The position numbers were made by a program, and so were the translations under genes. Below are positions 1 to 57,397 of a stretch of DNA of 64,000 bases, piece after piece. Within the stretch, counting starts at the first letter, position 1; each line of letters starts with the position of its first letter. Origin of the DNA: Escherichia coli. Its GTDB lineage: Bacteria > Pseudomonadota > Gammaproteobacteria > Enterobacterales > Enterobacteriaceae. The DNA lies in assembly GCF_001677475.2 (NCBI RefSeq), contig NZ_CP015229.1; one strand, given 5' to 3'. The notes beneath the pieces were generated by a model. It was not told the origin of the DNA, did not search any database, and was given only the letters and a program-made list of their open reading frames with translations.

Positions 1-1
1 T

Positions 2-298
2 AAACCGCTTTTCGCGCTGATAGATGCGATGAACGAAGCTCTCGACAAGCAACGCTGGCGACGTCTTCCGGCGCTGCATCAGCAGTTGATGCGTCAGTTT
101 CACGATTACGCGGCGGCTGAAACTGACGCGCAACAGCTTGGTGCGGTGAAATCGCAACTTCATGCCGCGTTTAGCGCATTAATTGCCCGCCGCGAGCAGC
201 GTGCCGACGTGCTGAAAGCGCGCATGGAGCTGCATCAGCAGCGCCAGGAAGGCGTGCTGGCCTACTCAATTGTTCATTTACTTTCGGAGAAGCCATGA
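2..298 (+). CDS. lafD: Lateral flagellar (Flag-2) protein, LafD-like; 5' end probably lies upstream of the window
   Basis: Frame is open back to base 2; stop overlaps the next gene's ATG (ATGA at 295-298); sits directly upstream of FliK/FliL/sigma-28/MotA/MotB homologues. Name assigned by position only. Confidence 0.45.
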   Translation, partial: KPLFALIDAMNEALDKQRWRRLPALHQQLMRQFHDYAAAETDAQQLGAVKSQLHAAFSALIARREQRADVLKARMELHQQRQEGVLAYSIVHLLSEKP

Positions 299-1356
299 AT
301 CCGGCATTGCTTGCCACGCTCGGAACGCTTGCGGAAACCGCGTCTCTGAAAACGGATATTTTACCGCCGGTGAGCGGTGAAAATGCGCCCGCGTTTACGC
401 TGCCGAAAATGGCAGTCGCGGCGGTGGCGGAGCGCGTTCATAGCGCGAAAACCAGTCAGCAACAAGCCACGCACCCGCAGGAGAACGATCCGGCAACGAT
501 GCAGGCCTTAATGGCGCTGTTACTGCCGCAACCTGCCGCGCCGCATCAGGACACGCCGCCGCCGCGAAACGTGGCGACATCGCCGGTTATCCAGCAACTG
601 ACGAAAGCGGTGGTGCAAAACGCGCCGCAACGCCCGACGCAACAGCAGGAACTCACGCCGTTGCCGCCGCAGTTGCAGGCGCTGGTGAGCCAGTTGCCGC
701 AGGTAAAACCGGATCAGCATGCCAGACTGGCGACTTACGCCAGTGAAGATTTACATGCCATTGCGCCGACGCAGCCGCGCGTCTCAACACAGCCAGCTCG
801 CCCGAAACCTGAACTAACCCGTGTGACCTCGCGCCCGCAGGTTGAGCGTAAAACGGAAAAAGTGCCGGACAGCGAACCGGTTATTGCGCGTGCGGTGTTG
901 CAGGATAAGACGCCGGAACTGGTCAGCGATCATCAGGAGATTGTCGCCAAACCAGCCACGCTTTCGATGGACGAACTGGGTGAAAAACTGACGACGCTTT
1001 TCAAAGATCAGATCCACTTTCAGCTCAACAAACAACAGCAGATCTCCACCATCCGTCTCGATCCACCGTCGCTTGGCAAGCTCGAGATCGCCGTACAACT
1101 CGACAACGGCAAACTGATGGTGCACATCGGCGCGAACCAAAGTGAAGTTTGCCGCGCGTTACAGCAGTTTAGCGACGATCTCCGCCAGCATCTGACGGCG
1201 CAAAATTTTATGGAGGTGAACGTACAGGTTTCCTCCGAAGGGCAGTCGCAGCAACAACAACAGTCGGGCCATCAGCAGGAAGAGGTGAGTGCCGCCTTAC
1301 AGCTTGATGATGCGCCTCAATTTCAACAGAACGAATCCGTTTTGATCAAAGTGTAA
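295..1356 (+). CDS. lafE: Flagellar hook-length control protein, FliK-like (Flag-2 LafE)
   Basis: 353 aa, Pro/Gln-rich central region typical of FliK, conserved C-terminal part; start overlaps upstream stop. Confidence 0.7.
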   Translation: MNPALLATLGTLAETASLKTDILPPVSGENAPAFTLPKMAVAAVAERVHSAKTSQQQATHPQENDPATMQALMALLLPQPAAPHQDTPPPRNVATSPVIQQLTKAVVQNAPQRPTQQQELTPLPPQLQALVSQLPQVKPDQHARLATYASEDLHAIAPTQPRVSTQPARPKPELTRVTSRPQVERKTEKVPDSEPVIARAVLQDKTPELVSDHQEIVAKPATLSMDELGEKLTTLFKDQIHFQLNKQQQISTIRLDPPSLGKLEIAVQLDNGKLMVHIGANQSEVCRALQQFSDDLRQHLTAQNFMEVNVQVSSEGQSQQQQQSGHQQEEVSAALQLDDAPQFQQNESVLIKV

Positions 1357-1363
1357 AGGCAAT

Positions 1364-1831
1364 ATGAAGAAAATCGTGGTGGCGGGCGTGGTCAGCGCCG
1401 TTCTGGCGTTGGTGGTGGGGGCCGGAGCTGGATGGAGTGTCTGGCATCATTATGCTGGAAAAGGAAAACCGACTGCCGCCGCGCAGACGGAAACGGTGGA
1501 AACCCTGGATGAAAGTAAAAGCGTGTTTGTGACGTTGCCGGAAACCATTGTCACGCTGCATGACAACAACGGCGCGGACCATTATTTGTCGGCGGAATTA
1601 GTGATGGTAGTCGCCAGTGACAAAGAAGCGGAAAAAATAAAACATCAGGAGCCGCTGTATCAAAGTATTGCAGTTGAATGCCTGACGGAAATGAAATTTG
1701 AAGATTTGCGTGGCATGAAAATATCTGCCATCCGCAAACTGATTTCTGACGCGTTAAAGAAAGATCTTCAGCGTCGCAAAATGAGCGCACCGTATAAGGA
1801 TTTGCTGGTGAAAAAAGTGGTCTTCCAGTAA
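1364..1831 (+). CDS. lafF: Flagellar basal-body-associated protein, FliL-like (LafF)
   Basis: 155 aa, N-terminal transmembrane helix (IVVAGVVSAVLALVVGAG), FliL-like size, position between fliK-like and sigma-28-like genes. Confidence 0.65.
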   Translation: MKKIVVAGVVSAVLALVVGAGAGWSVWHHYAGKGKPTAAAQTETVETLDESKSVFVTLPETIVTLHDNNGADHYLSAELVMVVASDKEAEKIKHQEPLYQSIAVECLTEMKFEDLRGMKISAIRKLISDALKKDLQRRKMSAPYKDLLVKKVVFQ

Positions 1832-1850
1832 TCACCAGGCGGATATAAAT

Positions 1851-2567
1851 ATGCTACAGGATGTATTCGAGTCAGAAGAATTTGCTGCCACACCGGTATT
1901 AACCCCGCAGCAGGAGAGCCACTACTTGCAGGCCTATTTACCGTTGGTGCGTAAAGTGGTGCGGCAACTTGCCCCGCAGTGTAATTGCATTATTGACCGT
2001 CAGGATATGGAACAAACGGCGTTAATGGGGCTGCTTAACGCCATTCGTCGCTATGGGCAGCCGGATGAAGGTTTTGCGGGCTATGCCGTGCACCGTATTC
2101 GCGGCGCGATCCTGGATGAGCTGCGCGCTCTCGACTGGCGACCGCGCCAGCTGCGACAGAAATATCATCAGATGAAAGACCTGATTCGCGAAACGCGTAA
2201 AAAACTGGGTCACGAACCGGAGTGGTCAGAACTGGCCGTGGAAGGGATCTCGCATGAAGATTATCTCGAATATCAGCAACTGGAAGGGGCGGAAACACTC
2301 GCCAGTCTGGACGAACTGCTGAACGGTGAAGGGGCAGGCATTCCGCTTGTTGGCAGGGAACTGGAAGATCAGTTTGTCACCCAGCAAATGTTGCAACAGG
2401 CGCTTTCACAATTAAGCGAAAAAGAGCAACTGATCCTCTCCATGTATTACCAGCATGAGATGAATCTCAAAGATATTGCGCTGGTATTAGGGCTAACCGA
2501 GGCCCGAATTTGTCAACTGAATAAACAGATCGCGCAGAAAATTCGTGATTTTGTCTATCCGAATTAA
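1851..2567 (+). CDS. lafS: Sigma-28 (FliA-family) sigma factor for the lateral flagellar system (LafS)
   Basis: 238 aa; sigma-70 region 2-like segment and region 4 HTH (LSEKEQLILSMYYQHEMNLKDIALVLGLTEARICQL). Confidence 0.85.
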   Translation: MLQDVFESEEFAATPVLTPQQESHYLQAYLPLVRKVVRQLAPQCNCIIDRQDMEQTALMGLLNAIRRYGQPDEGFAGYAVHRIRGAILDELRALDWRPRQLRQKYHQMKDLIRETRKKLGHEPEWSELAVEGISHEDYLEYQQLEGAETLASLDELLNGEGAGIPLVGRELEDQFVTQQMLQQALSQLSEKEQLILSMYYQHEMNLKDIALVLGLTEARICQLNKQIAQKIRDFVYPN

Positions 2568-2579
2568 AGTGAAGAAATT

Positions 2580-3443
2580 ATGCAAAAAATATTAGGTTTA
2601 CTGGTGGTGCTCGGCTGCGTATTTGGCGGTTATTTTGAAGCGGGCGGGCAATTAGTGGCTATCTGGCAACCGGCGGAGATGATCATTATTTTGGGTGCCG
2701 GTTTCGGGGCGATGATTATTGGTAACCCGAAACATGTGCTGAAAGAGATTGCCCATCAAATTAAAGGCGTGATCAGTAAAAAACAGCTTGGGCCGGAATT
2801 TCAGCGCCAGCTATTAATGTGCCTGTATGAGTTGCTCGAAATGGTGCAAAACGGCGGCCTGCGCATGCTGGATCAGCATATCGAGCAGCCGGAGGAGAGC
2901 ACTATTTTCCAGAAATACCCGCTGGTGTTAACCCAGAAACGGCTGGTGACCTTTATTGCCGATAACTTTCGCCTGATGGCGATGGGTAAGATTGACGCTC
3001 ATGAACTGGAAGGCATTCTCGATCAGGAACTGGACACCGCTGAAGAGTCGCTGTTAACGCCGTCGCGCTCGCTGCAACGTACCGCCGAAGCGATGCCGGG
3101 ATTTGGTATTTGTGCAGCAGTGTTGGGGATCATCATCACCATGCAGTCGATTGATGGATCTATCGCCCTGATTGGCCTGAAAGTGGCGGCAGCGCTGGTA
3201 GGGACGTTTTTAGGCGTCTTTATCTGCTACTGCCTGATGGACCCGCTCGCCAACGCCATGGAACAACAGGCGCGGGCGGAGCATTCATTGTTGGAGTGCG
3301 TGCGTACCGTGCTGGTGGCGCAGGCGGGCGGTAAACCGACGCTGCTGGCGGTGGACGCCGGGCGTAAGCTGCTGCATCTGGCGTCCAAACCGACCTTCGC
3401 CAACCTCGACGCGTGGGTGAATGCGATGCTGGAGCAAGAATAA
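2580..3443 (+). CDS. lafT: Flagellar stator protein, MotA-like (LafT)
   Basis: 287 aa, multiple transmembrane helices, MotA/TolQ/ExbB-type C-terminal membrane segment; immediately followed by a MotB-like gene. Confidence 0.8.
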   Translation: MQKILGLLVVLGCVFGGYFEAGGQLVAIWQPAEMIIILGAGFGAMIIGNPKHVLKEIAHQIKGVISKKQLGPEFQRQLLMCLYELLEMVQNGGLRMLDQHIEQPEESTIFQKYPLVLTQKRLVTFIADNFRLMAMGKIDAHELEGILDQELDTAEESLLTPSRSLQRTAEAMPGFGICAAVLGIIITMQSIDGSIALIGLKVAAALVGTFLGVFICYCLMDPLANAMEQQARAEHSLLECVRTVLVAQAGGKPTLLAVDAGRKLLHLASKPTFANLDAWVNAMLEQE

Positions 3444-3445
3444 GC

Positions 3446-4369
3446 ATGAGAAAGACGGGCAACCGCCGCGAGCGTGGGGCAAAAACCACCATCGTCCGGC
3501 GGCAGATCAAAAAGAATCATGCCGGGCATCACGGCGGGGCGTGGAAGGTGGCGTTTGCCGACTTTACTTTGGCAATGATGGCGCTGTTTATGACCCTGTG
3601 GATTGTCAACAGCGTCAGTAAATCCGAGCGTGAAAGTATTATCGCCGCGCTGCACGGGCAGTCGATTTTTAACGGTGGCGGGCTGTCGCCGTTAAATAAA
3701 ATCAGCCCGCCTCATCCGCCGAAACCTGCCACCGTGGCGGTGCCGGAAGAGACGGAGAAGAAAGCGCGCGACGTCAACGAGAAAACGGCGCTACTGAAGA
3801 AGAAATCTGCCACCGAGCTTGGAGAGCTGGCAACCAGTATCAACACCATTGCCCGTGATGCGCATATGGAAGCGAATCTGGAGATGGAGATTGTCCCGCA
3901 GGGATTACGCGTGCTGATTAAAGACGACCAGAACCGCAATATGTTTGAACGCGGCAGCGCGAAGATTATGCCGTTCTTTAAAACGCTGCTGGTGGAGTTA
4001 GCGCCAGTGTTCGACTCGCTCGATAACAAAATTATTATTACCGGGCATACTGATGCGATGGCCTACAAAAGCAATATCTACAACAACTGGAACCTTTCGG
4101 GCGATCGCGTGCTTTCGGCCCGTCGGGTGCTGGAAGAGGCCGGAATGCCGGAAGATAAAGTGATGCAGGTGAGCGCGATGGCGGACCAGATGTTGCTGGA
4201 TGCCAAAAATCCGCAAAGCGCGGGCAACCGGCGCATTGAGATTATGGTGCTGACTAAAAGCGCGTCCGATACGCTGTATCAATACTTTGGTCAGCATGGG
4301 GATAAAGTGGTGCAGCCGCTGGTGCAAAAGCTGGATAAGCAGCAGGCGCTTTCGCAGCGAACGCGTTAA
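3446..4369 (+). CDS. lafU: Flagellar stator protein, MotB-like with OmpA-type peptidoglycan-binding domain (LafU)
   Basis: Single N-terminal TM (WKVAFADFTLAMMALFMTLWIV) and C-terminal OmpA-like domain (IITGHTDAMAY...NRRIEIMV). Start chosen at the ATG 3446, 2 nt after the lafT stop; the longest ORF begins at 3413. Confidence 0.8.
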   Translation: MRKTGNRRERGAKTTIVRRQIKKNHAGHHGGAWKVAFADFTLAMMALFMTLWIVNSVSKSERESIIAALHGQSIFNGGGLSPLNKISPPHPPKPATVAVPEETEKKARDVNEKTALLKKKSATELGELATSINTIARDAHMEANLEMEIVPQGLRVLIKDDQNRNMFERGSAKIMPFFKTLLVELAPVFDSLDNKIIITGHTDAMAYKSNIYNNWNLSGDRVLSARRVLEEAGMPEDKVMQVSAMADQMLLDAKNPQSAGNRRIEIMVLTKSASDTLYQYFGQHGDKVVQPLVQKLDKQQALSQRTR

Positions 4370-4405
4370 ATGCTGAATCTTTACGCATTTCTCAAACCCT
4401 GAAAT

Positions 4406-4425
4406 CACTGTATACTTTACCAGTG
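4406..4425 (+). promoter_or_regulatory. LexA (SOS) box upstream of dinB
   Basis: CACTGTATACTTTACCAGTG fits CTG-N10-CAG, about 15 bp upstream of the dinB ATG. Confidence 0.85.
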
Positions 4426-4439
4426 TTGAGAGGTGAGCA

Positions 4440-5495
4440 ATGCGTAAAATCATTCATGTGGATATGGACTGCTTTTTCGCCGCGGTGGAGATGCGCGACA
4501 ATCCCGCCCTGCGCGATATCCCTATTGCTATTGGCGGCAGCCGCGAACGTCGGGGGGTGATCAGCACCGCCAATTATCCTGCGCGTAAATTTGGCGTACG
4601 TAGCGCTATGCCGACAGGGATGGCGCTCAAATTATGCCCACATCTCACCTTGCTTCCGGGGCGCTTTGACGCCTACAAAGAAGCCTCAAATCATATCCGT
4701 GAAATCTTCTCGCGCTACACCTCGCGCATTGAACCGTTGTCACTGGATGAAGCCTATCTCGATGTCACCGATAGCGTCCATTGCCACGGTTCTGCGACCC
4801 TCATCGCCCAGGAAATCCGCCAGACGATCTTCAACGAGCTGCAACTGACGGCGTCTGCGGGCGTGGCACCAGTAAAGTTTCTCGCCAAAATCGCCTCCGA
4901 CATGAATAAACCCAACGGCCAGTTTGTGATTACGCCGGCAGAAGTTCCGGCATTTTTACAAACCTTGCCGCTGGCAAAAATTCCCGGCGTCGGCAAAGTC
5001 TCGGCGGCAAAACTGGAAGCGATGGGGCTACGGACCTGCGGTGATGTGCAAAAGTGTGATCTGGTGATTCTGCTTAAACGCTTTGGCAAATTTGGCCGCA
5101 TTTTGTGGGAGCGTAGTCAGGGGATTGACGAGCGCGACGTTAACAGTGAACGGTTGCGAAAATCCGTCGGCGTGGAACGCACGATGGCGGAAGATATTCA
5201 TCACTGGTCTGAATGTGAAGCGATTATCGAGCGGCTGTATCCTGAACTTGAACGCCGTCTGGCAAAGGTAAAACCTGATTTACTGATTGCCCGCCAGGGG
5301 GTGAAATTAAAGTTCGATGATTTTCAGCAAACCACTCAGGAGCATGTCTGGCCGCGGCTGAATAAAGCTGACTTAATCGCCACCGCGCGTAAAACCTGGG
5401 ATGAACGCCGTGGCGGGCGCGGTGTGCGTCTGGTGGGGCTGCATGTGACGTTGCTTGACCCGCATATGGAAAGACAACTGGTGCTGGGATTATGA
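4440..5495 (+). CDS. dinB: DNA polymerase IV (Y-family translesion polymerase)
   Basis: 351 aa; N-terminus [33 protein letters not shown] is the E. coli DinB sequence as recalled. Confidence 0.97.
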
Positions 5496-5546
5496 TGTAT
5501 ACTATTATGTCTATTCTGGTGTGCATTATTATGAGGGGATCACTGT

Positions 5547-5840
5547 ATGCATCGAATTCTCGCTGAAAAATCGGTCAATATCACTGAGTTACGTAAAAAC
5601 CCAGCTAAATACTTTATTGATCAACCGGTTGCGGTTCTTTCTAATAATCGCCCCGCAGGATATCTCTTAAGTGCCAGCGCATTTGAAGCGTTAATGGACA
5701 TGCTTGCTGAACAAGAGGAGAAAAAACTGGTGAAGGCGCGCTTCCGTCCGAGTGCCGCAAGATTAGAGGAAATTACACGCCGCGCTGAACAATATCTTAA
5801 TGATATGACGGATGATGATTTCAATGACTTTAAGGAATAA
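5547..5840 (+). CDS. yafN: Type II antitoxin YafN
   Basis: 97 aa, Phd/YefM-like antitoxin, immediately upstream of yafO in the dinB operon. Confidence 0.88.
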   Translation: MHRILAEKSVNITELRKNPAKYFIDQPVAVLSNNRPAGYLLSASAFEALMDMLAEQEEKKLVKARFRPSAARLEEITRRAEQYLNDMTDDDFNDFKE

Positions 5841-5842
5841 GG

Positions 5843-6241
5843 ATGCGGGTATTCAAAACAAAACTTATTCGCCTGCAACTTACAGCAGAGGAACTTGATG
5901 CGTTAACGGCGGATTTTATTTCCTATAAGCGTGACGGTGTTTTGCCAGATATATTTGGTCGCGATGCACTCTACGACGACTCGTTTACCTGGCCATTAAT
6001 CAAATTTGAGCGAGTTGCTCATATTCATCTGGCAAATGTGAATAATCCATTTCCGTCACAGTTGCGCCAATTCAGCAGAACGAATGACGAAGCGCATTTG
6101 GTATATTGTCAGGGTGCGTTTGATGAGCAAGCATGGTTGCTCATTGCCATTCTGAAACCTGAACCTCATAAACTGGCTCGAGATAACAACCAAATGCATA
6201 AAATTGGGAAAATGGCAGAAGCGTTTCGCATGCGTTTTTGA
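5843..6241 (+). CDS. yafO: Type II toxin YafO (ribosome-dependent mRNA interferase)
   Basis: 132 aa, 2 nt after the yafN stop; conserved dinB-yafN-yafO-yafP order. Confidence 0.88.
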   Translation: MRVFKTKLIRLQLTAEELDALTADFISYKRDGVLPDIFGRDALYDDSFTWPLIKFERVAHIHLANVNNPFPSQLRQFSRTNDEAHLVYCQGAFDEQAWLLIAILKPEPHKLARDNNQMHKIGKMAEAFRMRF

Positions 6242-6250
6242 ATTTATATT

Positions 6251-6703
6251 ATGAATAACATACAAATAAGAAACTATCAGCCTGGCGATTTTCAGCAACT
6301 ATGCGCTATTTTCCTTAGAGCGGTTACGATGACCGCCAGTCAGCATTATTCACCACAACAAATTGCCGCCTGGGCGCAGATTGACGAATCTCGCTGGAAG
6401 GATAAACTCGCGAAATCACAAGTGCGGGTTGCCATCATTAATGCACAACCGGTTGGTTTTATTTCCCGCATTGAACATTATATCGATATGTTATTTGTTG
6501 ACCCTGAATACACCCGCCGTGGGGTTGCCAGCGCTTTGTTAAAACCTTTGATTAAGTCTGAATCCGAACTTACAGTGGACGCCAGCATAACCGCAAAACC
6601 ATTTTTTGAACGTTATGGTTTTCAGACAGTTAAGCAGCAGCGCGTTGAATGCCGGGGAGCGAGGTTTACTAATTTTTATATGCGTTATAAACAGCAACAT
6701 TAA
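6251..6703 (+). CDS. yafP: GNAT-family N-acetyltransferase YafP
   Basis: 150 aa, GNAT-like motif region (RRGVASALL); last gene of the dinB operon. Confidence 0.88.
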   Translation: MNNIQIRNYQPGDFQQLCAIFLRAVTMTASQHYSPQQIAAWAQIDESRWKDKLAKSQVRVAIINAQPVGFISRIEHYIDMLFVDPEYTRRGVASALLKPLIKSESELTVDASITAKPFFERYGFQTVKQQRVECRGARFTNFYMRYKQQH

Positions 6704-6872
6704 ATCCAGCTTGCAATGAAAATAACGCCCGCCTAATATGTGCGCGTTTTGTTATTCCACAAACTGCAAGGAGGTAAATCATGACAAATCCTTTATCAAT
6801 GACTCTTTGCAGACCTTTCCAGGATTAATTCTTTTTTTTCTTGCCCTGGATCCGTCTGCCATTTCCTGATTT

Positions 6873-7008
6873 TTATATTTATATACTCTAAATAATTCGA
6901 GTTGTAGGAAGGCGACAAGCGAGTGAATCCCTAGGAGCTTACGAAAGTAAGTGACTGGGGTGAACGAACGCAGTCGTAGTACATGCAACTTGAAGTATGA
7001 CGAGTATA
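6873..7008. repeat. ERIC/IRU element (enterobacterial repetitive intergenic consensus), copy 1
   Basis: Contains GTGAATCCCTAGGAGCTTAC and AAGTAAGTGACTGGGGTGAACG, matching the ERIC primer sites; imperfect palindrome; second copy at 25753-25880. Confidence 0.85.
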
Positions 7009-7009
7009 A

Positions 7010-8161
7010 ATGGAATGGTACATGGGCAAATATATTCGTCCCTTATCCGATGCGGTATTTACCATCGCATCTGATGACCTGTGGATCGAGAGTTTAGCGA
7101 TCCAACAATTACACACCACGGCAAATTTACCCAACATGCATCGCGTAGTGGGGATGCCAGATTTACACCCCGGACGTGGCTACCCGATTGGCGCAGCGTT
7201 CTTCTCCGTAGGTCGTTTTTACCCGGCGCTGGTCGGCAATGATATCGGCTGCGGCATGGCGCTATGGCAAACAGATATTCTCGTGCGCAAGTACAACGCC
7301 GATAAGTTTGAAAAGCGATTATCAGCTTTGGATGACGTTGCTGAAGAAAGCTGGCTGGAGGAAAACCTGCCGTCAGCGTTTGCACTACATCCGTGGCGCA
7401 GCTCGCTTGGCTCCATCGGCGGTGGCAATCACTTCGCTGAACTGCAACAGATTGATCAAATTATCGACGCGGAACTGTTTGCACTGGCAGGTCTGGATGC
7501 GCAGCATCTGCAACTGCTGGTTCATAGCGGATCGCGTGGTCTGGGGCAGTCTGTTTTACAAAAACATATTTCCACATTCTCGCATCATGGTTTGCCGGAA
7601 GGCAGTGATGACGCGATGCGCTATATCGTGGAACATGACGATGCGCTGGCGTTTGCTCGCATTAATCGCCAGATGATCGCCCTGCGCATAATGCAACAGG
7701 TGAAGGCTACGGGAAGTCCGGTTCTGGATGTGGCGCATAACTTCATTACCGCGAGTAAAATTGGCGATCAACAAGGCTGGTTACACCGTAAAGGGGCTGC
7801 GCCAGATGACAGTGGCCTGGTGGTTATCCCCGGTTCACGCGGTGATTACTCATGGCTTGTACAGCCTGTCAGTAGCGAAGAAATATTGCATTCGCTGGCG
7901 CATGGGGCAGGACGTAAATGGGGGCGCACCGAGTGCAAAGGACGGCTGGCAGCGAAATACACGGCGACGCAACTTACGCGTACTGAACTTGGCAGCAGGG
8001 TAATTTGTCGCGATAAACAGCTCATCTTTGAAGAGGCGCCGCAGGCCTATAAATCGGCAGAAAGCGTGGTGCAATGTCTGGTGCAGGCCGGTTTAATTAT
8101 TCCTGTCGCGCGGCTGCGCCCGGTGCTGACACTCAAAAACAGTGGAGGGAAAAAAGGATGA
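7010..8161 (+). CDS. RtcB-family RNA ligase paralogue (RtcB2-like), full length
   Basis: 383 aa; GGGNHF motif and HNF motif region typical of RtcB; stop overlaps the prfH start (ATGA at 8158-8161). The K-12 counterpart (ykfJ) is a pseudogene. Confidence 0.8.
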
Positions 8162-8772
8162 TCTTGCTACAACTCTCCTCAGCCCAGGGACCGGAAGAAT
8201 GCTGCCTCGCAGTCAAAAAGGCGTTGGACAGGCTGATTAAAGAAGCATCCCAACAGCGTGTTGCGGTAACGGTGCTGGAGACAGAAACGGGCCGCTACTC
8301 TGATTCGCTGCGTTCAGCGCTGGTTTCTCTGGATGGCGACAACGCATGGGCATTAAGCGAAAGCTGGTGCGGCACTATTCAGTGGATTTGTCCGAGTCCG
8401 TATCGGCCTCATCATGGGCGCAAAAACTGGTTTCTGGGCATTGGGCGTTTTACCGCTGATGAGCAGGAACAATCGGATGCAATCCGTTATGAGACGCTGC
8501 GTTCGTCGGGGCCGGGCGGTCAACATGTCAATAAAACCGACTCGGCGGTACGCGCCACGCATCTGGCTACCGGAATTAGTGTGAAGGTTCAGTCAGAGCG
8601 CAGCCAGCATGCTAACAAACGGCTGGCGCGATTGCTGATCGCCTGGAAGCTGGAACAACAGCAACAGGAAAATAGCGCGGTGCTGAAATCGCAGCGGCGA
8701 ATGTTCCATCACCAGATTGAACGTGGCAACCCGCGACGGACATTTACAGGGATGGCTTTTATCGAAGGATAA
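8158..8772 (+). CDS. prfH: Peptide chain release factor homologue PrfH
   Basis: 204 aa from [15 protein letters not shown]; GGQ motif present ([17 protein letters not shown]); the longer ORF from 8074 overlaps rtcB and is taken as an extension artefact. Confidence 0.88.
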
Positions 8773-8784
8773 TGAAGGATGAAA

Positions 8785-8817
8785 CTGCCGGAAGGCGATT
8801 AAACGCCATCCGGCAGC
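8785..8817. terminator. Bidirectional hairpin between convergent prfH and pepD
   Basis: Inverted repeat CTGCCGGAAGGCG...CGCCATCCGGCAG between two convergent stops. Confidence 0.6.
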
Positions 8818-8828
8818 AAATCAAATAA

Positions 8829-10286
8829 TTACTTCGCCGGAATTTCTTTCAGCAGTTCAGTCAGCAGTGTCCAGTAATGACCTACGCTTTCGATGTGAAC
8901 TTGCTCATCCGGAGAGTGTGGACCGGTGATAGTTGGCCCGATAGACACCATGTCCATTTCCGGATACGGTTTTTTGAACAGACCACATTCCAGGCCCGCG
9001 TGGATAATCTGGATGTTCGGCGTCTTGTTGAACAGGCGCTGATAGGTTTCACGTACCAGATGCATCACCGGAGAATTAGCGTCCGGCTGCCAGCCAGGAT
9101 ATGCGCCTTTCGCTTCGGTTTTCGCGCCAGCCAATTTACCCAGCGAATCCAGCATGCTCACCACGTAGTCTTTACCGCTGTCGATCAGAGAACGGATCAG
9201 ACAGTGAATTTCTACGTTATTGTCAGTCATGGTCACCACACCGACGTTCAGGGAGGTTTCGACCACACCTTTTGCCACGTCGGAGTTGCGGATCACACCG
9301 TTCGGGGTGGCGTTCAGTAGACGAATAAAGGTATCGCGAGATTTCGCAATCAGGGCAGCTTTATCGTTCGCTACAGAGTCCAGCAACAAGGCCAGATTTT
9401 TCTCTTTCTCTGCCAGCTCGTTTTTCAGGATATCCTGATAGGTATTCACCAGAGATTTCAGGGCGTCGACTTTATCAGCTGCGACAGCAATGGTCGCAAA
9501 GGCTTCACGCGGGATGGCGTTACGCAGTGTGCCGCCGTTGAAATCAATAAGACGCAGGTCCAGTTCTTCTGCATGACCCGCCAGGAAGCGCACCAGCAGT
9601 TTGTTGGCATTACCCAGGCCAACGTGGATTTCACCGCCGGAGTGACCGCCTTTCAGACCTTTTAAGGTTAACTTGAAGGTTTCAAAACCAGCTGGAACCG
9701 CTTCACGATCTAAATGCAGGTTGGAGGTGAAGTCGATACCCCCCGCACAACCCATGTAGATTTCACCTTCTTCTTCGGAGTCGGTGTTAATCAAAATATC
9801 AGCCTGCAACCAGTTGCTCTGTAAGCCGAACGCACCGTCCATACCTGCTTCTTCGGTCATGGTCAGCAGCACTTCCAGCGGGCCGTGAACCACGTTTTCG
9901 TCAGCCAGAACCGCCAGTGCAGAGGCCATACCAATGCCGTTATCCGCACCCAGCGTGGTACCGCGCGCTTTAACCCATTCGCCATCAATATAAGGCTGGA
10001 TAGGATCTTTAGTGAAGTCATGCACGGTGTCGTTATTTTTCTGCGGCACCATATCGAGGTGGGCCTGCAAGACGACCGGTTTACGATTTTCCATACCTGC
10101 GGTAGCAGGTTTACGAATCAGGATATTACCTACCTGATCGCGTTCGACATGGAAACCTTTCTCTTTTGCCCAACCAACAATGTATTCAGCGAGTTGCTCT
10201 TCATGATAGGACGGGTGAGGAATAGAACAGATTTTGGCAAAAATATCCCACAGCGGCTGTGGAGATAATTGAGACAGTTCAGACAC
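8829..10286 (-). CDS. pepD: Cytosol non-specific dipeptidase (aminoacyl-histidine dipeptidase), M20 family
   Basis: 485 aa; N-terminus MSELSQLSPQPLWDIFAKICSIPHPS as recalled for E. coli PepD. Confidence 0.95.
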   Translation of the reverse strand: MSELSQLSPQPLWDIFAKICSIPHPSYHEEQLAEYIVGWAKEKGFHVERDQVGNILIRKPATAGMENRKPVVLQAHLDMVPQKNNDTVHDFTKDPIQPYIDGEWVKARGTTLGADNGIGMASALAVLADENVVHGPLEVLLTMTEEAGMDGAFGLQSNWLQADILINTDSEEEGEIYMGCAGGIDFTSNLHLDREAVPAGFETFKLTLKGLKGGHSGGEIHVGLGNANKLLVRFLAGHAEELDLRLIDFNGGTLRNAIPREAFATIAVAADKVDALKSLVNTYQDILKNELAEKEKNLALLLDSVANDKAALIAKSRDTFIRLLNATPNGVIRNSDVAKGVVETSLNVGVVTMTDNNVEIHCLIRSLIDSGKDYVVSMLDSLGKLAGAKTEAKGAYPGWQPDANSPVMHLVRETYQRLFNKTPNIQIIHAGLECGLFKKPYPEMDMVSIGPTITGPHSPDEQVHIESVGHYWTLLTELLKEIPAK

Positions 10287-10546
10287 GTTAAGTCTCCTTG
10301 TCGATCACCCGCAAAACAGTATTGCAGGTCACAGGGTTAGCAGAAAATGTTGTCAACACAAGACAGGCTTGCGAGATATGTTTGAGAATACCACTTTATC
10401 CCGCGTCAGGGAGAGGCAGTGCGTAAAAAGACGCGGACTCATGTGAAATACTGGTTTTTAGTGCGCCAGATCTCTATAATCTCGCGCAACCTATTTTCCC
10501 CTCGAACACTTTTTAAGCCGTAGATAAACAGGCTGGGACACTTCAC

Positions 10547-11005
10547 ATGAGCGAAAAATACATCGTCACCTGGGACATGTTGCAGATCCATGCACGTAAA
10601 CTCGCAAGCCGACTGATGCCTTCTGAACAATGGAAAGGCATTATTGCCGTAAGCCGTGGCGGTCTGGTACCGGGTGCGTTACTGGCGCGTGAACTGGGTA
10701 TTCGTCATGTCGATACCGTTTGTATTTCCAGCTACGATCACGACAACCAGCGCGAGCTTAAAGTGCTGAAACGCGCAGAAGGCGATGGCGAAGGCTTCAT
10801 CGTTATTGATGACTTGGTGGATACCGGTGGTACTGCGGTTGCTATTCGAGAAATGTATCCAAAAGCGCACTTTGTCACCATCTTCGCAAAACCGGCCGGT
10901 CGCCCGCTGGTTGATGATTATGTTGTTGATATCCCGCAAGATACCTGGATCGAACAGCCGTGGGATATGGGCGTCGTATTCGTCCCGCCAATCTCTGGTC
11001 GCTAA
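10547..11005 (+). CDS. gpt: Xanthine-guanine phosphoribosyltransferase
   Basis: 152 aa; [23 protein letters not shown]; PRPP-binding motif [11 protein letters not shown]. Confidence 0.95.
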
Positions 11006-11012
11006 TCTTTTC

Positions 11013-11045
11013 AACGCCTGGCACTGCCGGGCGTTGTTCTTTTTA
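11013..11045 (+). terminator. Rho-independent terminator downstream of gpt
   Basis: Hairpin AACGCCTGGCACTGCCGGGCGTT followed by a T-run. Confidence 0.75.
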
Positions 11046-11096
11046 ACTTCAGGCAGGTTACAATAGTTTCCAGTAAGTATTCTGGAGGCTGCATCC

Positions 11097-12341
11097 ATGA
11101 CACAGGCAAACCTGAGCGAAACCCTGTTCAAACCCCGCTTTAAACATCCTGAAACCTCGACGCTAGTTCGCCGCTTTAATCACGGCGCACAACCGCCTGT
11201 GCAGTCGGCCCTTGATGGTAAAACCATCCCTCACTGGTATCGCATGATTAACCGTTTGATGTGGATCTGGCGCGGCATTGACCCACGTGAAATCCTCGAC
11301 GTCCAGGCGCGTATTGTGATGAGCGATGCCGAACGTACCGACGATGATTTATACGATACGGTGATTGGCTACCGCGGCGGCAACTGGATTTATGAGTGGG
11401 CTACCCAGGCGATGGTGTGGCAACAAAAAGCCTGTGCGGAAGAAGATCCGCAACTCAGTGGTCGACACTGGCTGCATGCGGCTACGTTGTACAACATTGC
11501 TGCCTATCCTCATCTAAAAGGAGATGACCTGGCCGAGCAAGCGCAGGCTTTGTCAAACCGCGCCTATGAAGAGGCCGCTCAGCGTCTGCCGGGCACGATG
11601 CGGCAGATGGAGTTTACCGTACCCGGCGGTGCGCCCATCACCGGCTTTTTGCATATGCCGAAAGGCGATGGCCCGTTCCCGACAGTATTAATGTGTGGTG
11701 GTCTGGATGCGATGCAGACGGACTATTACAGCCTGTATGAACGTTATTTTGCGCCGCGCGGCATTGCGATGCTGACTATTGATATGCCGTCGGTGGGCTT
11801 TTCTTCAAAATGGAAGCTCACCCAGGACTCCAGCCTGTTGCATCAGCACGTCTTAAAGGCGCTGCCTAACGTACCGTGGGTAGATCACACTCGCGTCGCG
11901 GCCTTTGGTTTCCGTTTCGGCGCTAACGTTGCCGTACGTCTGGCATACCTTGAATCGCCGCGTCTGAAAGCGGTTGCCTGTCTTGGTCCGGTAGTTCATA
12001 CCCTGTTGAGTGATTTTAAGTGCCAGCAACAGGTGCCGGAAATGTATCTTGACGTTCTGGCGAGTCGTTTGGGGATGCATGATGCTTCCGACGAAGCGTT
12101 ACGCGTGGAGCTGAATCGCTATTCATTAAAAGTGCAAGGATTGCTGGGACGTCGTTGCCCAACGCCAATGTTATCAGGCTACTGGAAGAACGATCCGTTC
12201 AGCCCGGAAGAGGACTCACGCTTAATCACCTCATCATCTGCTGACGGTAAATTATTAGAGATCCCATTTAACCCGGTGTATCGGAATTTTGACAAAGGCC
12301 TTCAGGAAATCACAGACTGGATCGAAAAACGATTGTGTTAA
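11097..12341 (+). CDS. frsA: Fermentation/respiration switch protein, alpha/beta hydrolase
   Basis: 414 aa; conserved position between gpt and crl; sequence recalled as FrsA. Confidence 0.9.
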
Positions 12342-16664: not shown

Positions 16665-16740
16665 GCCGATATAGCTCAGTTGGTAGAGCAGCGCATTCGT
16701 AATGCGAAGGTCGTAGGTTCGACTCCTATTATCGGCACCA
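16665..16740 (+). tRNA. thrW: tRNA-Thr (anticodon CGU)
   Basis: 76 nt GCCGATATAGCTCAGTTGGTAGAGCAGCGCATTCGTAATGCGAAGGTCGTAGGTTCGACTCCTATTATCGGCACCA; cloverleaf with CGT anticodon and encoded CCA end. Confidence 0.95.
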
Positions 16741-16754
16741 TTTAAATCAATAAG

Positions 16755-17021
16755 TTACACATCATTAGTACCTTCCTTATTTCTTGACTGGGACAAATTT
16801 GGGACCGATGGGTTCAGAATCGAGTCTATTTGCCGTGCGTGTTCGGTAAGGTGATTAGGTGCGAGGTGAGCATATCGACGAACCATTTCAAGAGTTTCCC
16901 ATCCTCCCATTTCTGTAAGTGCAAGAAGAGAAACACTGGACTGAACCAGCCTGCTTGCCTTTGCTATCAAAGTACCTTGAGGACCAGATGATTTCTGGCG
17001 ATATTTACAGCGCGTCCGCAA
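16755..17021 (-). pseudogene. Tyrosine-recombinase (phage/P4-type integrase) C-terminal remnant
   Basis: Only about 50 C-terminal residues are integrase-like ([34 protein letters not shown], with the catalytic Tyr region); no N-terminal or core domains upstream; adjacent to the tRNA attachment site. Confidence 0.65.
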
Positions 17022-17107
17022 TGAGTTTTTCTCCGTGCCGCCAGTGACGTTCCCCGCTTTTTCAGTGCGGCGATAATATCAGCGGGATGCCAGTCCTGTT
17101 GTGTCAT
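16966..17107 (-). pseudogene. Ner/Nlp(SfsB)-like HTH regulator, 5' fragment fused to the integrase remnant
   Basis: Begins [24 protein letters not shown], matching the Ner/Nlp N-terminus as recalled, then diverges and stops after about 46 codons; a Ner-like segment (LIAKA) continues in the integrase-remnant frame. Confidence 0.45.
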
Positions 17108-17574
17108 ACAACCACCTCGCTGATAAATTTTACGCCGTCGGCGGTGCGCAGCCAGCGCGGGGCTTTGAGTCCTTCCATGAAATACCAGACCAGTTCACAC
17201 AACAGCCCGGTCAGGGTTTGTTCCGTTTTTGGTTCCGCCGGGCGTTCCAGCAGAAGCTGGAGTAGTGCGAGGCAGTATTCGCACAAGGAATCTGGTTCGG
17301 AAATAAAGTGCTCTGGTGTGGCGGGAAGGGTATCAACGGTCAGGCTTTCAATCAGATGCGGCGGGATGGGGTCGTGCAGCGTGGGGTGCAATAGCGCAAG
17401 AGCCGCGTGAAGCCGTCCGCAGAGCGCTAGCCGTAGCGCGGGATCGTCGGTTTCGATCAGGGTTTCGGCGAAGCGGGCGCAGTAATCGGCAAGGACAGTA
17501 AAATCCGTGGTGGCATTGAAGGGGGCGGACAGCAGATCGAGTAAATCGCAGTCAGGGGTGAGGGTTGTAGCCAT
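17104..17574 (-). CDS. Hypothetical protein, 156 aa, acidic and Leu-rich, no recognised domain
   Basis: ORF with an AGGAGA Shine-Dalgarno about 7 nt upstream of the ATG at 17574 (longest ORF starts at 17628); stop overlaps the ATG of the Ner-like fragment (ATGA); GC-rich relative to the neighbouring RT gene. Confidence 0.5.
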   Translation of the reverse strand: MATTLTPDCDLLDLLSAPFNATTDFTVLADYCARFAETLIETDDPALRLALCGRLHAALALLHPTLHDPIPPHLIESLTVDTLPATPEHFISEPDSLCEYCLALLQLLLERPAEPKTEQTLTGLLCELVWYFMEGLKAPRWLRTADGVKFISEVVV

Positions 17575-17917
17575 AGGGCGTCTCCTGTAACGGTTTATTA
17601 TGTCCGCCACTAGAGAGGCTAATCTCATGGGGGGCGGAACCGGACGGGGTTAGCCTTACCGGCGTTACAGGAAACCGGCGCGTCTTGCGACGCCCCCGCC
17701 CGGCCCGCCATTGAGGTGTAGCCGAACGCACGACACAAAAAAGACGCTGGTGCGTCAAGTGTCGCCTGTAACGGTTTTCAGGAGGCTAATCCCGACGCCT
17801 GATTTTGCAGGCGCGGGAGAAAGATACTGCGATTGGTCATGAGTGGCAAGGGCTACATCCTGTTTACCGACATCTCACGCAAAAATACCCTGATTATTAA
17901 TAGCGAAAATCAGTTTC

Positions 17918-20900
17918 TTATTTTGGCGGTAGCTTTTTGCGGTTCTTTGCCAATTGGAATCCTTCAGGTAACGGTTTGAATTTATCGCCGCCTTTAGGCC
18001 AGCGTTTTGCCCTGCTCTGAAATGCCCTTAACGAGTCGATATCCAGTGTTGCAGCGATCACAAAGTCATTATCGCCGCCCTTCACACGAGCAATATCACG
18101 CATAAAGGGTTCTTTTGCCGGGGAACGTACGCGACTATCGCCGTATTTTCGGTTATTCACTAAAATGGTATAGGCATGAATATCCAGCGCTGCTGATTCA
18201 ATCAACGATGCAAACGTATCCAGATCTTTATTCCAGCTCAATACCATTAATGCATCGAGCGCGCCCTGAAAACGGATCCTCGCTTTACTATTCTGGAGTT
18301 CAGAGCAAATCATAACGCCAAAATTGACGCCGTGATGAATATATACCGGCTTACGTTGTTTAACATTAAGTGTCGAGTCCCAAGACTTACCATAAGTTGA
18401 AAATAATGCCTCATCTTCACCTACGGCGGGTTCCAGCTTGGGTTGCCATATTTTGACACTCGCTGGATAGCCGAGTCTGTTATCTGAAAGGACAAGTACG
18501 GCCTCACTCTTCAGTTGATTATCGCCTAAGTGGCGGTATTCTGTTCCCGCAATTAGACTGATACCCGCCGAACTCAAACGATCAGCAATACTGTTAACCC
18601 AGCGTAACGGGATTGAAAGCTCGGGGAATAAAACATAATCAGGTTTAGGAGATAGTTTCAATGTTGCATTAACCAGTTCAGAAATCCGCTGGTACCTTGA
18701 ACGGGACAAGTTAGATTTATTGCAGGCCATTTTAGCCCAGTCGTCTTCCTCTGTTTTAATGCTGGTTAGCGCAACGACAATTTTATGTTTCCTGTCAGTG
18801 CCAATATGAATGAATTTCTTAGGCCGAGCTTTTTTTGTCGCTTCATCTGAGTCCTGCTCCGATGCTAGTAACGTCGGTTTGATCCATACACCGCGTAATG
18901 CTTGAGTATATTTTGCCCAAACGGTGGACGGTCTCTCATCTGGTTTTTTGTCGGATGTAGAGGGTAATCCAACACATTCGGGGGCCAGTTCTGATATTTC
19001 AGCGGGAGTTAAAGGACGTGTAGGGAAAATGTAAGGTAGGTAACTTTCGTTCTTACGATTTCCTTTAGCCACTTTTTCCAGTCGGGTATTCTTGGTTGAT
19101 TTCAAAAATAGCTTAATAACGTCAATATCAATAAGCGATGAGTCCCTCATTAATTTCAGTATTTTAACTTCTTTTTTACGATCACGCTGATTAACAAGTT
19201 TTTCTGCCGACTGACTCTTTACGATCTGTTTATAAGGTTCCTTTGCTAAATCAGCTCGAGCTACCAATGGCGCTTTTAAATAAAAATCTGCTGAATCAAA
19301 GCGAAGATCCAGTAAATCCTTTAGATTTGTCAGACTTTGTGAAATATGATTAAAAAATGTATCCGCAAGGCACTCTTCTTTCTTTGAACGTTTATCAAGA
19401 AATAATCTGTCAGGACTGTAATATCGTGTCGCTGCATCAACAAATAGCCAGCTTAATGTGCCTTTTATACAGCGCCAAAGATCATTTACTGCTCGAGTTT
19501 TGCAACCATTTATAGTCACTTCCTTACCTGAAGTAATCACCGATGCCAACAGGTTGATGGACTCGTAAGCTTTAAGTACAATTTTTTCCGCGTGCTGCCA
19601 TTCATTCATACTGATAGCAAAGCCAAGCAGCCTTGGCAGATAACTAAAATGTGCAAATAGATTATCAGCCCTAAGAATATGGTTGTAGGCAAACTGATAA
19701 AACTCTTCCCGCTGTTCTTTCCATTCACTTGGAGACAGATCTCGTGCCAGTGTTTCAACGTAGCGTAATTGCAGTGACCAGCCCAAACGACGAATGGTTA
19801 ATCCATCCGCACGGCGCAGAGTATCGGCATTTTCACCTACACTACCGGCAGCGGAAAGGACTTTAGCTGCGGTGGAGTGTTCCAGTTGATCCGGTGAAGG
19901 CATCAAGCGGTGTTCACTAGAAAGCTCGTAGATCTCCTTTTCGATACTGTCGAGCAGATCTATTCCTGCCCTCCCTTGAAGCACGAAAAGTTTTTGCTTA
20001 TCGGATTGTAACTGGATGGTGGTCTTACCCTGGAAATGCTCGCCCTGCTGTATTTGCCATATTTGTTTTTTCTCGTTTTTCAGATAAACGCAATCATTGC
20101 CAAGCCTATCTTGCAGCAATAACATAAATTCGTGATTATTAGTAATTTTACCTGTATCGCGTATTACAAGGAACATATCATCGACATAACGACCGTAGTG
20201 AATTGGCGACAGTTTTTCAATGACTAATTTATCCCAATGGTGTAGCAATATATTGGAAATGATCCGACTGGCTGTTAATCCAATGACCAGACCACCATTA
20301 ATAACAGGTGTTTTGTACGCTATTTTTTTTCCAAATGCCGCTGCGCCGTCAGACCAGTGCTTTAAGAATACAGCTAACTGTGCAGTAAACGCTTTTTCAT
20401 GCTCAGTCAGTTTTATGTTTAGTGTGTTATAGAGATCATCAGAGGTTATAGCCAGTGGATCAATAAAATGATAGTAACTTTTTAAATCCAGTGAGGCGGC
20501 GATAATGTCACGATCTTTTTCCAACTCGTCACGTATAGCTTTTAAGCCATCACCACGCCATTTTTGGTAGGGCTGGAAATAGGGGCTAAAAGAACCCACG
20601 GCACTGATATGGAATGGATTATCCTGCTCATTGCTAAATAATTCATCATTACGAATACGTTTTAGCCGCGCGCCATAACAACAGTTGTCTAAGCTGGCAT
20701 CAAATTTATGCCCGACCATATTAATCCATAGTGCAGAGATAATGTGACTATCAACCGGGAAGTCACCAATAATACGAAACTCTGGTATCAGATCAAAATT
20801 ATTAAATAAATGGTCGGCTGCTCGTTTAGGATTAGAAAAGTGGACGTGTCCATTTTGGAATTCATGTTTTTTCTTTGTGGTTAATTTTTTCGGTAACAAA

Positions 20901-21127
20901 CGAAATTTGCCAATCAACTTCTTATTGCTACTGAATCCATCTTCGCTCTGCAAAATATCTAAGAGTTCTTGCAGGTTTTCAATTAATTCCTGCTCATACT
21001 CGGCAAATTTGATAGCAACAGGAAATGTATTCTCAAAGAAGCTATCGGCTTTGGCTTTCCGGTAAGCGACCAGAAGGTCTTCAATCGTCAGATCATCCCA
21101 GCCAGTGAAAGTTGCCTGATATGTCAT
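17918..21127 (-). CDS. Reverse transcriptase fused to a C-terminal nitrilase (CN-hydrolase) domain; UG/Abi-type defence-associated RT (DRT type 1 / UG1-like architecture)
   Basis: 1069 aa. RT motifs: motif A ASLDLKSYYHFID, motif B GLVIGLTASRIISNILL, motif C YGRYVDDMFLV (about aa 310-320). C-terminal ~280 aa carry a nitrilase-like Glu/Cys pattern (VLFPELSIP ... GVMICSELQ). AT-rich gene in an island next to a tRNA. Confidence 0.85.
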   Translation of the reverse strand: MTYQATFTGWDDLTIEDLLVAYRKAKADSFFENTFPVAIKFAEYEQELIENLQELLDILQSEDGFSSNKKLIGKFRLLPKKLTTKKKHEFQNGHVHFSNPKRAADHLFNNFDLIPEFRIIGDFPVDSHIISALWINMVGHKFDASLDNCCYGARLKRIRNDELFSNEQDNPFHISAVGSFSPYFQPYQKWRGDGLKAIRDELEKDRDIIAASLDLKSYYHFIDPLAITSDDLYNTLNIKLTEHEKAFTAQLAVFLKHWSDGAAAFGKKIAYKTPVINGGLVIGLTASRIISNILLHHWDKLVIEKLSPIHYGRYVDDMFLVIRDTGKITNNHEFMLLLQDRLGNDCVYLKNEKKQIWQIQQGEHFQGKTTIQLQSDKQKLFVLQGRAGIDLLDSIEKEIYELSSEHRLMPSPDQLEHSTAAKVLSAAGSVGENADTLRRADGLTIRRLGWSLQLRYVETLARDLSPSEWKEQREEFYQFAYNHILRADNLFAHFSYLPRLLGFAISMNEWQHAEKIVLKAYESINLLASVITSGKEVTINGCKTRAVNDLWRCIKGTLSWLFVDAATRYYSPDRLFLDKRSKKEECLADTFFNHISQSLTNLKDLLDLRFDSADFYLKAPLVARADLAKEPYKQIVKSQSAEKLVNQRDRKKEVKILKLMRDSSLIDIDVIKLFLKSTKNTRLEKVAKGNRKNESYLPYIFPTRPLTPAEISELAPECVGLPSTSDKKPDERPSTVWAKYTQALRGVWIKPTLLASEQDSDEATKKARPKKFIHIGTDRKHKIVVALTSIKTEEDDWAKMACNKSNLSRSRYQRISELVNATLKLSPKPDYVLFPELSIPLRWVNSIADRLSSAGISLIAGTEYRHLGDNQLKSEAVLVLSDNRLGYPASVKIWQPKLEPAVGEDEALFSTYGKSWDSTLNVKQRKPVYIHHGVNFGVMICSELQNSKARIRFQGALDALMVLSWNKDLDTFASLIESAALDIHAYTILVNNRKYGDSRVRSPAKEPFMRDIARVKGGDNDFVIAATLDIDSLRAFQSRAKRWPKGGDKFKPLPEGFQLAKNRKKLPPK

Positions 21128-21422
21128 GCGTTATCGTCCTTAGATTAAAGTCTGTACAGAATTAGCCAGCCGTTTCATGCCCGAAGGAGGTGCTCTTGAC
21201 ACCAGTAATCCATCAGTGAGGCTGGCAATAATTTTGATTTGTATCCATGTTACACGCTCCCCGCAACCAGTCCGAGCATATATTTGTCACATTTTTCCCG
21301 AAAGTGATTAAGTTTGAATTTTTTGTTTAATGTCGATTTTTAGTCGACAAAATGAGGAATAAGTAAATTATTTCTTGCTGTGGCGTATCCCTGAACCTAC
21401 ACTGGTTTAAATATTTGTACTA

Positions 21423-36019: not shown

Positions 36020-36033
36020 TGTAATGAATGATA

Positions 36034-36060
36034 AAAATGGCGCAAATACAGCGCCATTTT
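36034..36060 (+). terminator. Hairpin terminator downstream of yagU
   Basis: AAATGGCGCAAATACAGCGCCATTT stem-loop followed by a T-run. Confidence 0.65.
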
Positions 36061-36265
36061 TATAGGTTAAAAACATTGCTTTTTATATTCTGATGCAGCT
36101 AGTCAGTGAGCATATCGCGCCACTTCAGGATGATGTAGATCCGAAGAACGCTACAGAAGAGAGGCATTGTTGCTGGCAAATAGAAGAAGTTTCGGGTTTT
36201 GTTGCCCCTAAAAACGAAGCCCCGCTATTACAGTAGGCGGGGCAGTGCAATTAATTATTGCATAT

Positions 36266-56515: not shown

Positions 56516-56563
56516 ATAAAATACCATCAATGAAGTGATTAAGAAGTTAGGTAGTGCATCCAA

Positions 56564-56959: not shown

Positions 56960-56985
56960 ATCAGCATGGGCAACAGGCGAAGACG

Positions 56986-57258: not shown

Positions 57259-57397
57259 GAGATAACCTCAAAAGCCCGTATTATACATCAGATTCAACTA
57301 ATTAGAGACATCACCAGAAGTTATAAAGTAACAGGGAATTAATAAGATTCTTTTCTCTGAGACGCCAGAATATTTGTTCTGGCGTCTGATTTTGAGT

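Follow-up and report, generated by a model that had tools for sequence, protein, structure and literature searches.

The distal end of a Flag-2 lateral flagellar cluster next to dinB in Escherichia coli and its probable continuation upstream

When only the last genes of a flagellar cluster are visible at the edge of a sequence, does the strain carry the whole of a second flagellar system or only the intact-looking end of a broken one? This question is raised by a 64,000-nucleotide (nt) stretch of Escherichia coli DNA (contig NZ_CP015229.1 of assembly GCF_001677475.2), called the window throughout, in which positions 1-4369 make up the 3' part of cluster 3 (lafWZABCDEFSTU) of Flag-2, a secondary flagellar locus of the lateral type found in Enterobacterales, at its usual place in the chromosome. 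The best explanation of the data as a whole, and one that we consider very probable, is an intact Flag-2 tail that would be transcribed as part of a lafBCDEFSTU operon and preceded by a complete upstream cluster. The finding is already known and adds no new biology. The Flag-2 locus was reportedly described in enteroaggregative E. coli 042 by Ren et al. in 2005. A survey of Flag-2 across 4028 Enterobacterales genomes was published by De Maayer et al. in 2020 (PMC6993521), with a further paper by De Maayer et al. (2020b), and a complete locus is defined as 39 conserved genes, from lfhA to lafU.

A reading made from the letters and open reading frames (ORFs) of the window, the sequence-only reading, had taken positions 1-4369 for the distal end of Flag-2, made up of five complete co-directional genes behind a 5'-truncated one. 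The plus-strand ORFs and the Pfam and NCBIfam matches bear out this gene count, and gene-for-gene agreement with the cluster of strain 042 bears out the identity. The 3' part of lafD, encoding a putative FliT-like chaperone, occupies 1..298 on the plus strand; 298 of its 312 nt lie inside the window, and the gene is cut by the window edge only, its ATG sitting 14 nt before window base 1 in an assembly that is 100% identical here. Then come, all on the plus strand, lafE (295..1356), encoding a FliK-like hook-length control protein of 353 amino acids (aa), and lafF (1364..1831), encoding a FliL-like basal-body-associated protein of 155 aa, both assigned from Pfam (Flg_hook and FliL) together with the 042 alignment. 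The remaining three genes, assigned from Pfam, NCBIfam and the 042 alignment, are lafS (1851..2567; a 238-aa sigma factor of the FliA/sigma-28 family for the lateral system), lafT (2580..3443; a 287-aa MotA-type stator subunit) and lafU (3446..4369; a 307-aa MotB-type stator subunit with a peptidoglycan-binding OmpA-like domain). The start of lafU was taken as the ATG at 3446, as in every annotated homologue, where the ORF list gave a GTG at 3413. From lafD to lafU the intergenic distances are, in order, -4 (ATGA, at lafD/lafE), 7, 19, 12 and 2 nt, so that the tight spacing described earlier holds, while the overlapping stop and start codons, given there in the plural, are found at the lafD/lafE junction only. 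The lafU stop at 4369 and the dinB ATG at 4440 leave the 70 nt that had been counted between them.

The comparison with annotated Flag-2 loci leaves little doubt about what these genes are. Their order (lafD-lafE-lafF-lafS-lafT-lafU), their product lengths and the 70-nt gap to dinB are the same as in 042 (NC_017626.1 284682-323159) and in Eco_24-2013. The six genes are collinear with those of 042 (the lafD tail aligning with the 103-aa lafD of 042 and Eco_24-2013) and contain no frameshift or internal stop, and the global protein alignments of LafE to LafU against 042 are free of gaps and internal stops. Counted over columns that include the stop, identical residues number 333/354 for LafE (94%), 155/156 for LafF (99.4%), 232/239 for LafS (97%), 287/288 for LafT (99.7%) and 301/308 for LafU (97.7%). 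The two checks that the sequence-only reading had proposed here, alignment with 042 and a search for frameshifts in lafS, lafT and lafU, have thus both turned out in its favor. Genes, order, lengths, spacing and the dinB junction are all the same as in 042, whereas the nucleotide identity to 042 is ~95% and falls to ~79% across lafD. The ratio of nonsynonymous to synonymous substitution rates (dN/dS), calculated according to Nei-Gojobori, ranges from 0.009 to 0.2 overall, with 0.16-0.19 for lafE, 0.03-0.06 for lafF and 0.009 for lafT, and is 0.02 for the adjacent dinB. Because these values are far below 1, they argue that the laf genes of the window are under purifying selection and are not decaying. 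No Rfam match was found inside 1-4369, and a repeat search of 1-6000 gave short chance-level repeats only. Antisense ORFs of 50-150 aa within 1-4400 were judged to be by-products of G+C-rich coding sequence.

The family profiles agree with these names. LafE has a C-terminal Pfam Flg_hook (T3S4) domain at residues 240-321 (E 3.7e-17), and in translation the N-terminal half that precedes it is P/Q-rich, as looked for in a FliK-type protein. LafF matches Pfam FliL (E 2.4e-10), and LafS matches Sigma70_r2 and Sigma70_r4 (each ~1e-12) as well as the NCBIfam FliA/WhiG model NF009091 (444 bits, cut-off 339) and TIGR02479 (202.6 bits, cut-off 189.6). LafT matches Pfam MotA_N (E 4e-28) and MotA_ExbB and the NCBIfam model MotA1 TIGR03818 (375 bits, cut-off 304), and LafU matches Pfam MotB_plug (E 4.5e-15) and OmpA and the NCBIfam LafU equivalog NF005273 (cut-off 383). 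For LafD, no Pfam or NCBIfam family, the FliT profile included, was found at the thresholds used, and its tentative description as FliT-like rests on synteny and on the name FliT that NCBI gives to 103-aa LafD homologues. The tail of LafD also hit Pfam CCD97-like_C with 20 bits, below the cut-off, which we dismissed as coiled-coil noise. In pairwise alignment, LafT shares 36% of its residues with K-12 MotA and conserves P173 and P222, while it has Gln at the position of MotA R90, with the nearest Arg at 95, and a conservative Asp at that of MotA E98. LafU is 31% identical to K-12 MotB, and its Asp39, in the motif ADF, is aligned to Asp32 of MotB, the proton-binding residue of that protein. Judged by their families, LafT and LafU would form a proton-conducting stator of the MotA/MotB type.

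The contrast with K-12 is one of a cluster end against a scar. In MG1655 dinB comes 70 nt after the pseudogenes lfhA' and lafU' (b0229/b0230), as it does after lafU in the window, in keeping with the earlier statement that K-12 retains fragments only. A blastn comparison with the composite cluster described below shows that the K-12 deletion begins within lfhA, runs to window position ~3597 in lafU and has removed 35,384 bp; its junction lies at ~3598-3603, where the lfhA' and lafU' pieces overlap by 6 nt. Of window 1-4369, K-12 therefore keeps only the lafU' part on the plus strand at 3598..4369. The slot, the 3' end of lafU, the 70-nt spacer, the dinB promoter with its presumed LexA box and dinB-yafNOP are common to both, whereas K-12 is without 35.4 kb and everything distal to lafD is intact in the window. 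Among 5426 complete genomes of E. coli in RefSeq, 5416 match window 1-4500 somewhere, 1294 (24%) cover 80% or more of it, and 1303 (24%) have lafD. These figures agree with the published Flag-2 frequency of 24/100 E. coli, and remnants of lfhA/lafU were reported for 76/76 Flag-2-negative strains (PMC6993521).

To see the rest of the cluster, relatives were located in public assemblies by an exact match to the LafE protein and were then walked upstream. Window 1-11356 is 100% identical to contig ABBDOW010000002.1 of assembly GCA_019142445.1, and the pieces of the walk along this contig merged with zero conflicts. Going back from lafD, it carries lafC, lafB, lafA, lafZ, lafW, lfgL-lfgA, lfgM and lfgN and, beyond lfgN, genes for a FliB-like methyltransferase and an 814-aa glycosyltransferase, a cytidylyltransferase-like gene, lfiJ-lfiE and lafK. 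A sister assembly, GCA_019139975.1, is 100% identical to this contig over an overlap of 13,392 nt and adds lfiM, lfiN, lfiP, lfiQ, lfiR, lfhB and lfhA, followed by rayT and yafL. One further locus, L006, which had been found through a LafK match, was left out of the composite since it belongs to an unrelated strain and LafK is widely identical. From the stop of lfhA to that of lafU, the resulting composite locus measures 37.9 kb, and it gives full-length tblastn matches for 42/42 genes of the 042 locus. As compared with that locus, lfgC is intact in the relatives (143 aa) and frameshifted in 042, the RelE/helix-turn-helix pair that 042 has between lafW and lafZ (VR2) is absent from them, and the VR1 genes are the most divergent, with a glycosyltransferase of 814 aa versus 823 aa in 042 and identities of 86% for the FliB-like protein and 88% for LfgN. 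The exact LafE, LfgI, FliB-like and LfiF alleles of the lineage are each indexed in ~47-66 contig-collection blocks. Since these counts resemble the 50 blocks found for a core allele at the opposite end of the window, it seems that both ends of the locus are present throughout the lineage. The contigs read that bear the exact lineage alleles nearly all fall into one gene context and all into one or two.

How the window genes would be transcribed can be approached through promoter motifs. At ~1.8 kb upstream of the window, a perfect sigma-54 motif, TGGCAC-N5-TTGC, precedes lafB by 47 nt (composite 33732; positions 17385-17399 of L003, a locus from a relative of the window) and is found at the same distance in 4/4 loci, those of 042, Eco_24-2013, a metagenome and this lineage. 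Further out, at ~14.6 kb, another perfect sigma-54 motif precedes lfgB by 52 nt (composite 20880; L003 4533-4547) and is present in 3/4 of these loci (042, the metagenome locus and this lineage), Eco_24-2013 being the one in which it was not found. Between lafD and lafU, the terminator scan of the plus strand gave one weak 5-bp stem only, inside lafU at 3649-3662, and the promoter scan gave no plus-strand sigma-70-like site upstream of lafS or lafT. The sequence-only reading had suggested looking for sigma-28-type promoters before lafT and lafA, and here the outcome went against it. No TAAA-N14-16-GCCGATAA site within three mismatches exists in the 308 nt before lafT or in the lafZ-lafA spacer, the consensus being that of E. 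coli FliA, from which that of LafS may differ. The window has only two sites with at most two mismatches, which overlap each other at 3669-3670 in lafU and are not usefully placed. In the scan as a whole, sites of this quality occurred only within the coding regions of lfhA, lfhB, lfiI, the glycosyltransferase gene, lfgF, lfgK and lafU and were treated as chance.

Because of the sigma-54 motif before lafB, the tiny gaps between the genes and the lack of a sigma-70-like site before lafS and lafT, the window genes most likely form the last part of a single lafBCDEFSTU operon, with its start at a sigma-54 promoter before lafB. The single operon proposed earlier is thus retained as likely, given the tiny gaps, with its start probably at lafB and hence outside the window. 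This model follows the lateral hierarchy of Vibrio parahaemolyticus, in which class 2 genes, the lateral fliA among them, are driven by LafK/sigma-54 and class 3 genes subsequently by sigma-28 (summarised in PMC4481668). LafK and sigma-54 would fire the lafB promoter to give a lafBCDEFSTU transcript, from which LafS and the stator would be made together with the cap, chaperones and ruler. LafS, as the system's own sigma-28, would then switch on the flagellin gene lafA and other late genes. LafE would act as hook-length ruler and secretion-specificity switch, LafD as export chaperone and LafF as a FliL-type basal-body protein, while LafT/LafU would be the peptidoglycan-anchored, proton-conducting stator that powers rotation. 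The extent of the operon, the regulatory cascade and any expression are in this sense what we infer from the genes and their motifs.

Other explanations have to be weighed against this. The FliK, FliL, FliA, MotA and MotB families occur in Flag-1 too, and the genes could for that reason be thought to belong to the primary Flag-1 or to another supernumerary locus (flag-3/4/5). We give this idea virtually no credence. LafT and LafU are 36% and 31% identical to K-12 MotA and MotB but 97.7-99.7% identical to LafT and LafU of 042, LafU scores 572 bits with the LafU equivalog versus 219 bits with the MotB model, and the gene order and the position next to dinB are those of Flag-2; these identities, the position and the equivalog score refute it. 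Because LafT and LafU are so little like their K-12 counterparts, the flagellar genes of the window are paralogues of the Flag-1 genes and not copies of them, and in annotation they should be named lafD to lafU instead of fliK or the motAB of a primary flagellum. The genes could also form more than one transcription unit, with lafTU or lafS, for example, being read as a late class apart from lafB-F, from a LafS/sigma-28 or sigma-70 promoter within the cluster. In other flagellar systems the stator is expressed late (class 3), the two widest junctions are those before lafS (19 nt) and lafT (12 nt), and the specificity of Escherichia LafS is undefined, so that a consensus scan could miss sites. 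However, neither a sigma-28 match before lafT nor a sigma-70-like site upstream of lafS or lafT was found in the scans described above, and gaps of 2-19 nt are too small for intergenic promoters. We therefore regard internal promoters as a rather doubtful alternative to a single transcript from lafB.

The alternative that bears most directly on the opening question is that the distal genes are intact but that the cluster is broken further upstream in this strain by an insertion sequence (IS), a partial deletion or a frameshift. The window has at least one IS1-family copy that is not present in its closest public relatives, so that IS elements are mobile in the strain, 042 itself has a frameshifted lfgC, and disruption by IS elements (lfgF, lfiG) and deletions are frequent in Flag-2 loci (PMC6993521; PMC11420993). 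On the other side, relatives that are 100% identical over 11.4 kb keep 42/42 genes at full length, contigs with the exact lineage alleles collapse to one or two gene contexts, and the strong purifying selection on the distal genes argues against long-standing decay. We hold a break upstream to be clearly improbable and a complete cluster in the window's own strain to be highly probable, as a strong inference from its relatives. The earlier suggestion of a full system continuing upstream is accordingly confirmed as an untruncated cluster in the nearest relatives and very probably holds for the strain itself.

Several points nevertheless weigh against an intact, operon-encoded and complete cluster. 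The window stops inside lafD, and the upstream cluster was seen only in relatives. Between 50 and 57 kb, the window differs from ABBDOW010000002.1 by the IS1-family insertion and three single-nucleotide polymorphisms, and Flag-2 loci are hot spots of IS hits and deletions (PMC6993521), so an IS insertion or a deletion may also have occurred in the unseen 38 kb. The operon structure and the sigma-54 dependence are based on motifs only, and the class 3 step is without motif support since no sigma-28 consensus precedes lafA or lafT. This does not refute such a step because the LafS consensus in Escherichia is not defined. Furthermore, neither LafA nor motility was obtained from the intact Flag-2 locus of the ST131 strain EC958 in the laboratory conditions tried (PMC4637896), which means that an intact sequence does not imply an expressed organelle.

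The origin of the genes is a related question. Measured on window 1-4500, 4400-12000 and 12000-36999, the identity to the best of the 5426 complete RefSeq E. coli genomes is ~96-97%; it reaches 95.9% in the laf genes and 96.7-97.1% in the core genes next to them. The window proteins are deposited as E. coli, with exact LafE and LafU under ANO87442.1 and ANO87446.1. The source of the window would seem to be a divergent lineage of Escherichia, perhaps a cryptic clade, and the divergence of Flag-2, which is about that of the core, fits vertical inheritance, with lafD as the exception. The LafD protein is 78% identical to that of 042 and the gene ~79% identical in nucleotides over one 250-nt bin, its best nucleotide identity among the 1303 complete lafD-bearing E. 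coli genomes is 84.6%, and its dS is 0.55-0.69 versus 0.05-0.2 for the flanking genes. Since lafD is far more divergent than its neighbors, these data suggest that its allele was imported by recombination. A lineage-specific lafD 27-mer had no match among 100,044 GTDB species representatives.

Whether such a locus could be put to use may be considered in the light of other lateral systems. Those of Vibrio parahaemolyticus and Aeromonas hydrophila share with it the laf gene names, the lafB...lafS-lafT-lafU arrangement and a LafK-type activator. They have a hierarchy of LafK/sigma-54 followed by LafS/sigma-28 and a proton-driven stator, to which the sigma-54 motifs before lafB and lfgB correspond here. 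In contrast, their genes are distant orthologues, and motY and maf-5 were not seen in the Escherichia locus, as stated for EC958 (PMC4637896). The EC958 locus resembles that of the window's relatives in looking intact and in having an intact lfgC (PMC4637896), while EC958 is reported to be without lafW/lafZ and the relatives have both. Flag-2 is functional in Plesiomonas and is expressed at low temperature in Yersinia enterocolitica (PMC4481668; PMC11420993). In the literature, we found no report of working lateral flagella in E. coli, and the only E. coli test found was the negative one of EC958. Because all Flag-2 genes, including lfgC, are intact in the sequenced relatives, it is conceivable that the lineage builds working proton-driven lateral flagella in some natural condition, such as low temperature or on surfaces, with read-through into dinB, although we consider this unlikely. 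A lineage with 42 genes intact in its relatives could be a reasonable candidate for testing the expression of Flag-2 in Escherichia, a question that predates the window and is not made newly testable by it.

At the downstream end, the lafU-dinB spacer (4370..4439, plus strand), examined by reading the sequence and by promoter and terminator scans, contains promoter-like hexamers for dinB at 4389-4416 and a box, CTGTATACTTTACCAG, at 4408-4423, which we take to be the LexA box from established knowledge of the dinB SOS box. No intrinsic terminator was found after lafU in these 70 nt by the terminator scan. With no terminator between lafU and the SOS-controlled dinB-yafNOP, transcriptional read-through from Flag-2 into dinB may be possible. 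A 15-nt inverted repeat (4380-4394/4434-4448; 93% complementary, with 39 nt between the arms) flanks the dinB promoter and the presumed LexA box and reaches the dinB start codon. The dinB gene itself (4440-5495, plus strand; 351 aa) has the Pfam domains of a Y-family polymerase, and the dinB-yafN-yafO-yafP operon is complete (5547-6703). The yafO gene (132 aa) is intact in the window; it has an internal stop in 042, and Eco_24-2013 is without yafN and yafO.

Elsewhere in the window, further features were noted. An rtcB-like gene (a 383-aa ORF) and prfH (204 aa) are both intact at 7010-8772, while in K-12 both are reduced to pseudogenes (ykfJ and prfH) and the copies in Eco_24-2013 are damaged. 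A small defence island at 16665-23133 adjoins tRNA-Thr(CGT) (16665-16740). It encodes a 1069-aa reverse transcriptase (17918-21127, minus strand), recognized by PADLOC as RT_UG5-nitrilase (DRT) with 1032 bits and without a Pfam match, and an AbiEi/AbiEii pair (21423-23133). It also has Rfam matches to the C4 antisense RNA (17627-17715) and isrK (17737-17814), which suggest a P4-like remnant. Downstream of yagU, the Rfam IS009 RNA is matched at full length (36025-36223, 193 bits). A full-length inverse autotransporter of 1417 aa with an IAT_beta domain and many Invasin_D3/Big_1 repeats, presumably EaeH-like, is encoded at 49166-53419, and in the closest assembly no gene is called over the stretch that matches it. 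The IS1-family element mentioned above is 766 bp long (56550-57315; DDE_Tnp_IS1, E 3e-76), is flanked by an 8-bp target duplication, AGAAGTTA, and is absent from the two closest public assemblies. It lies between genes for a 78-aa YdgH/BhsA-like protein and a 441-aa pyridine-nucleotide-disulfide oxidoreductase, which we take to be rclB/rclA-like.

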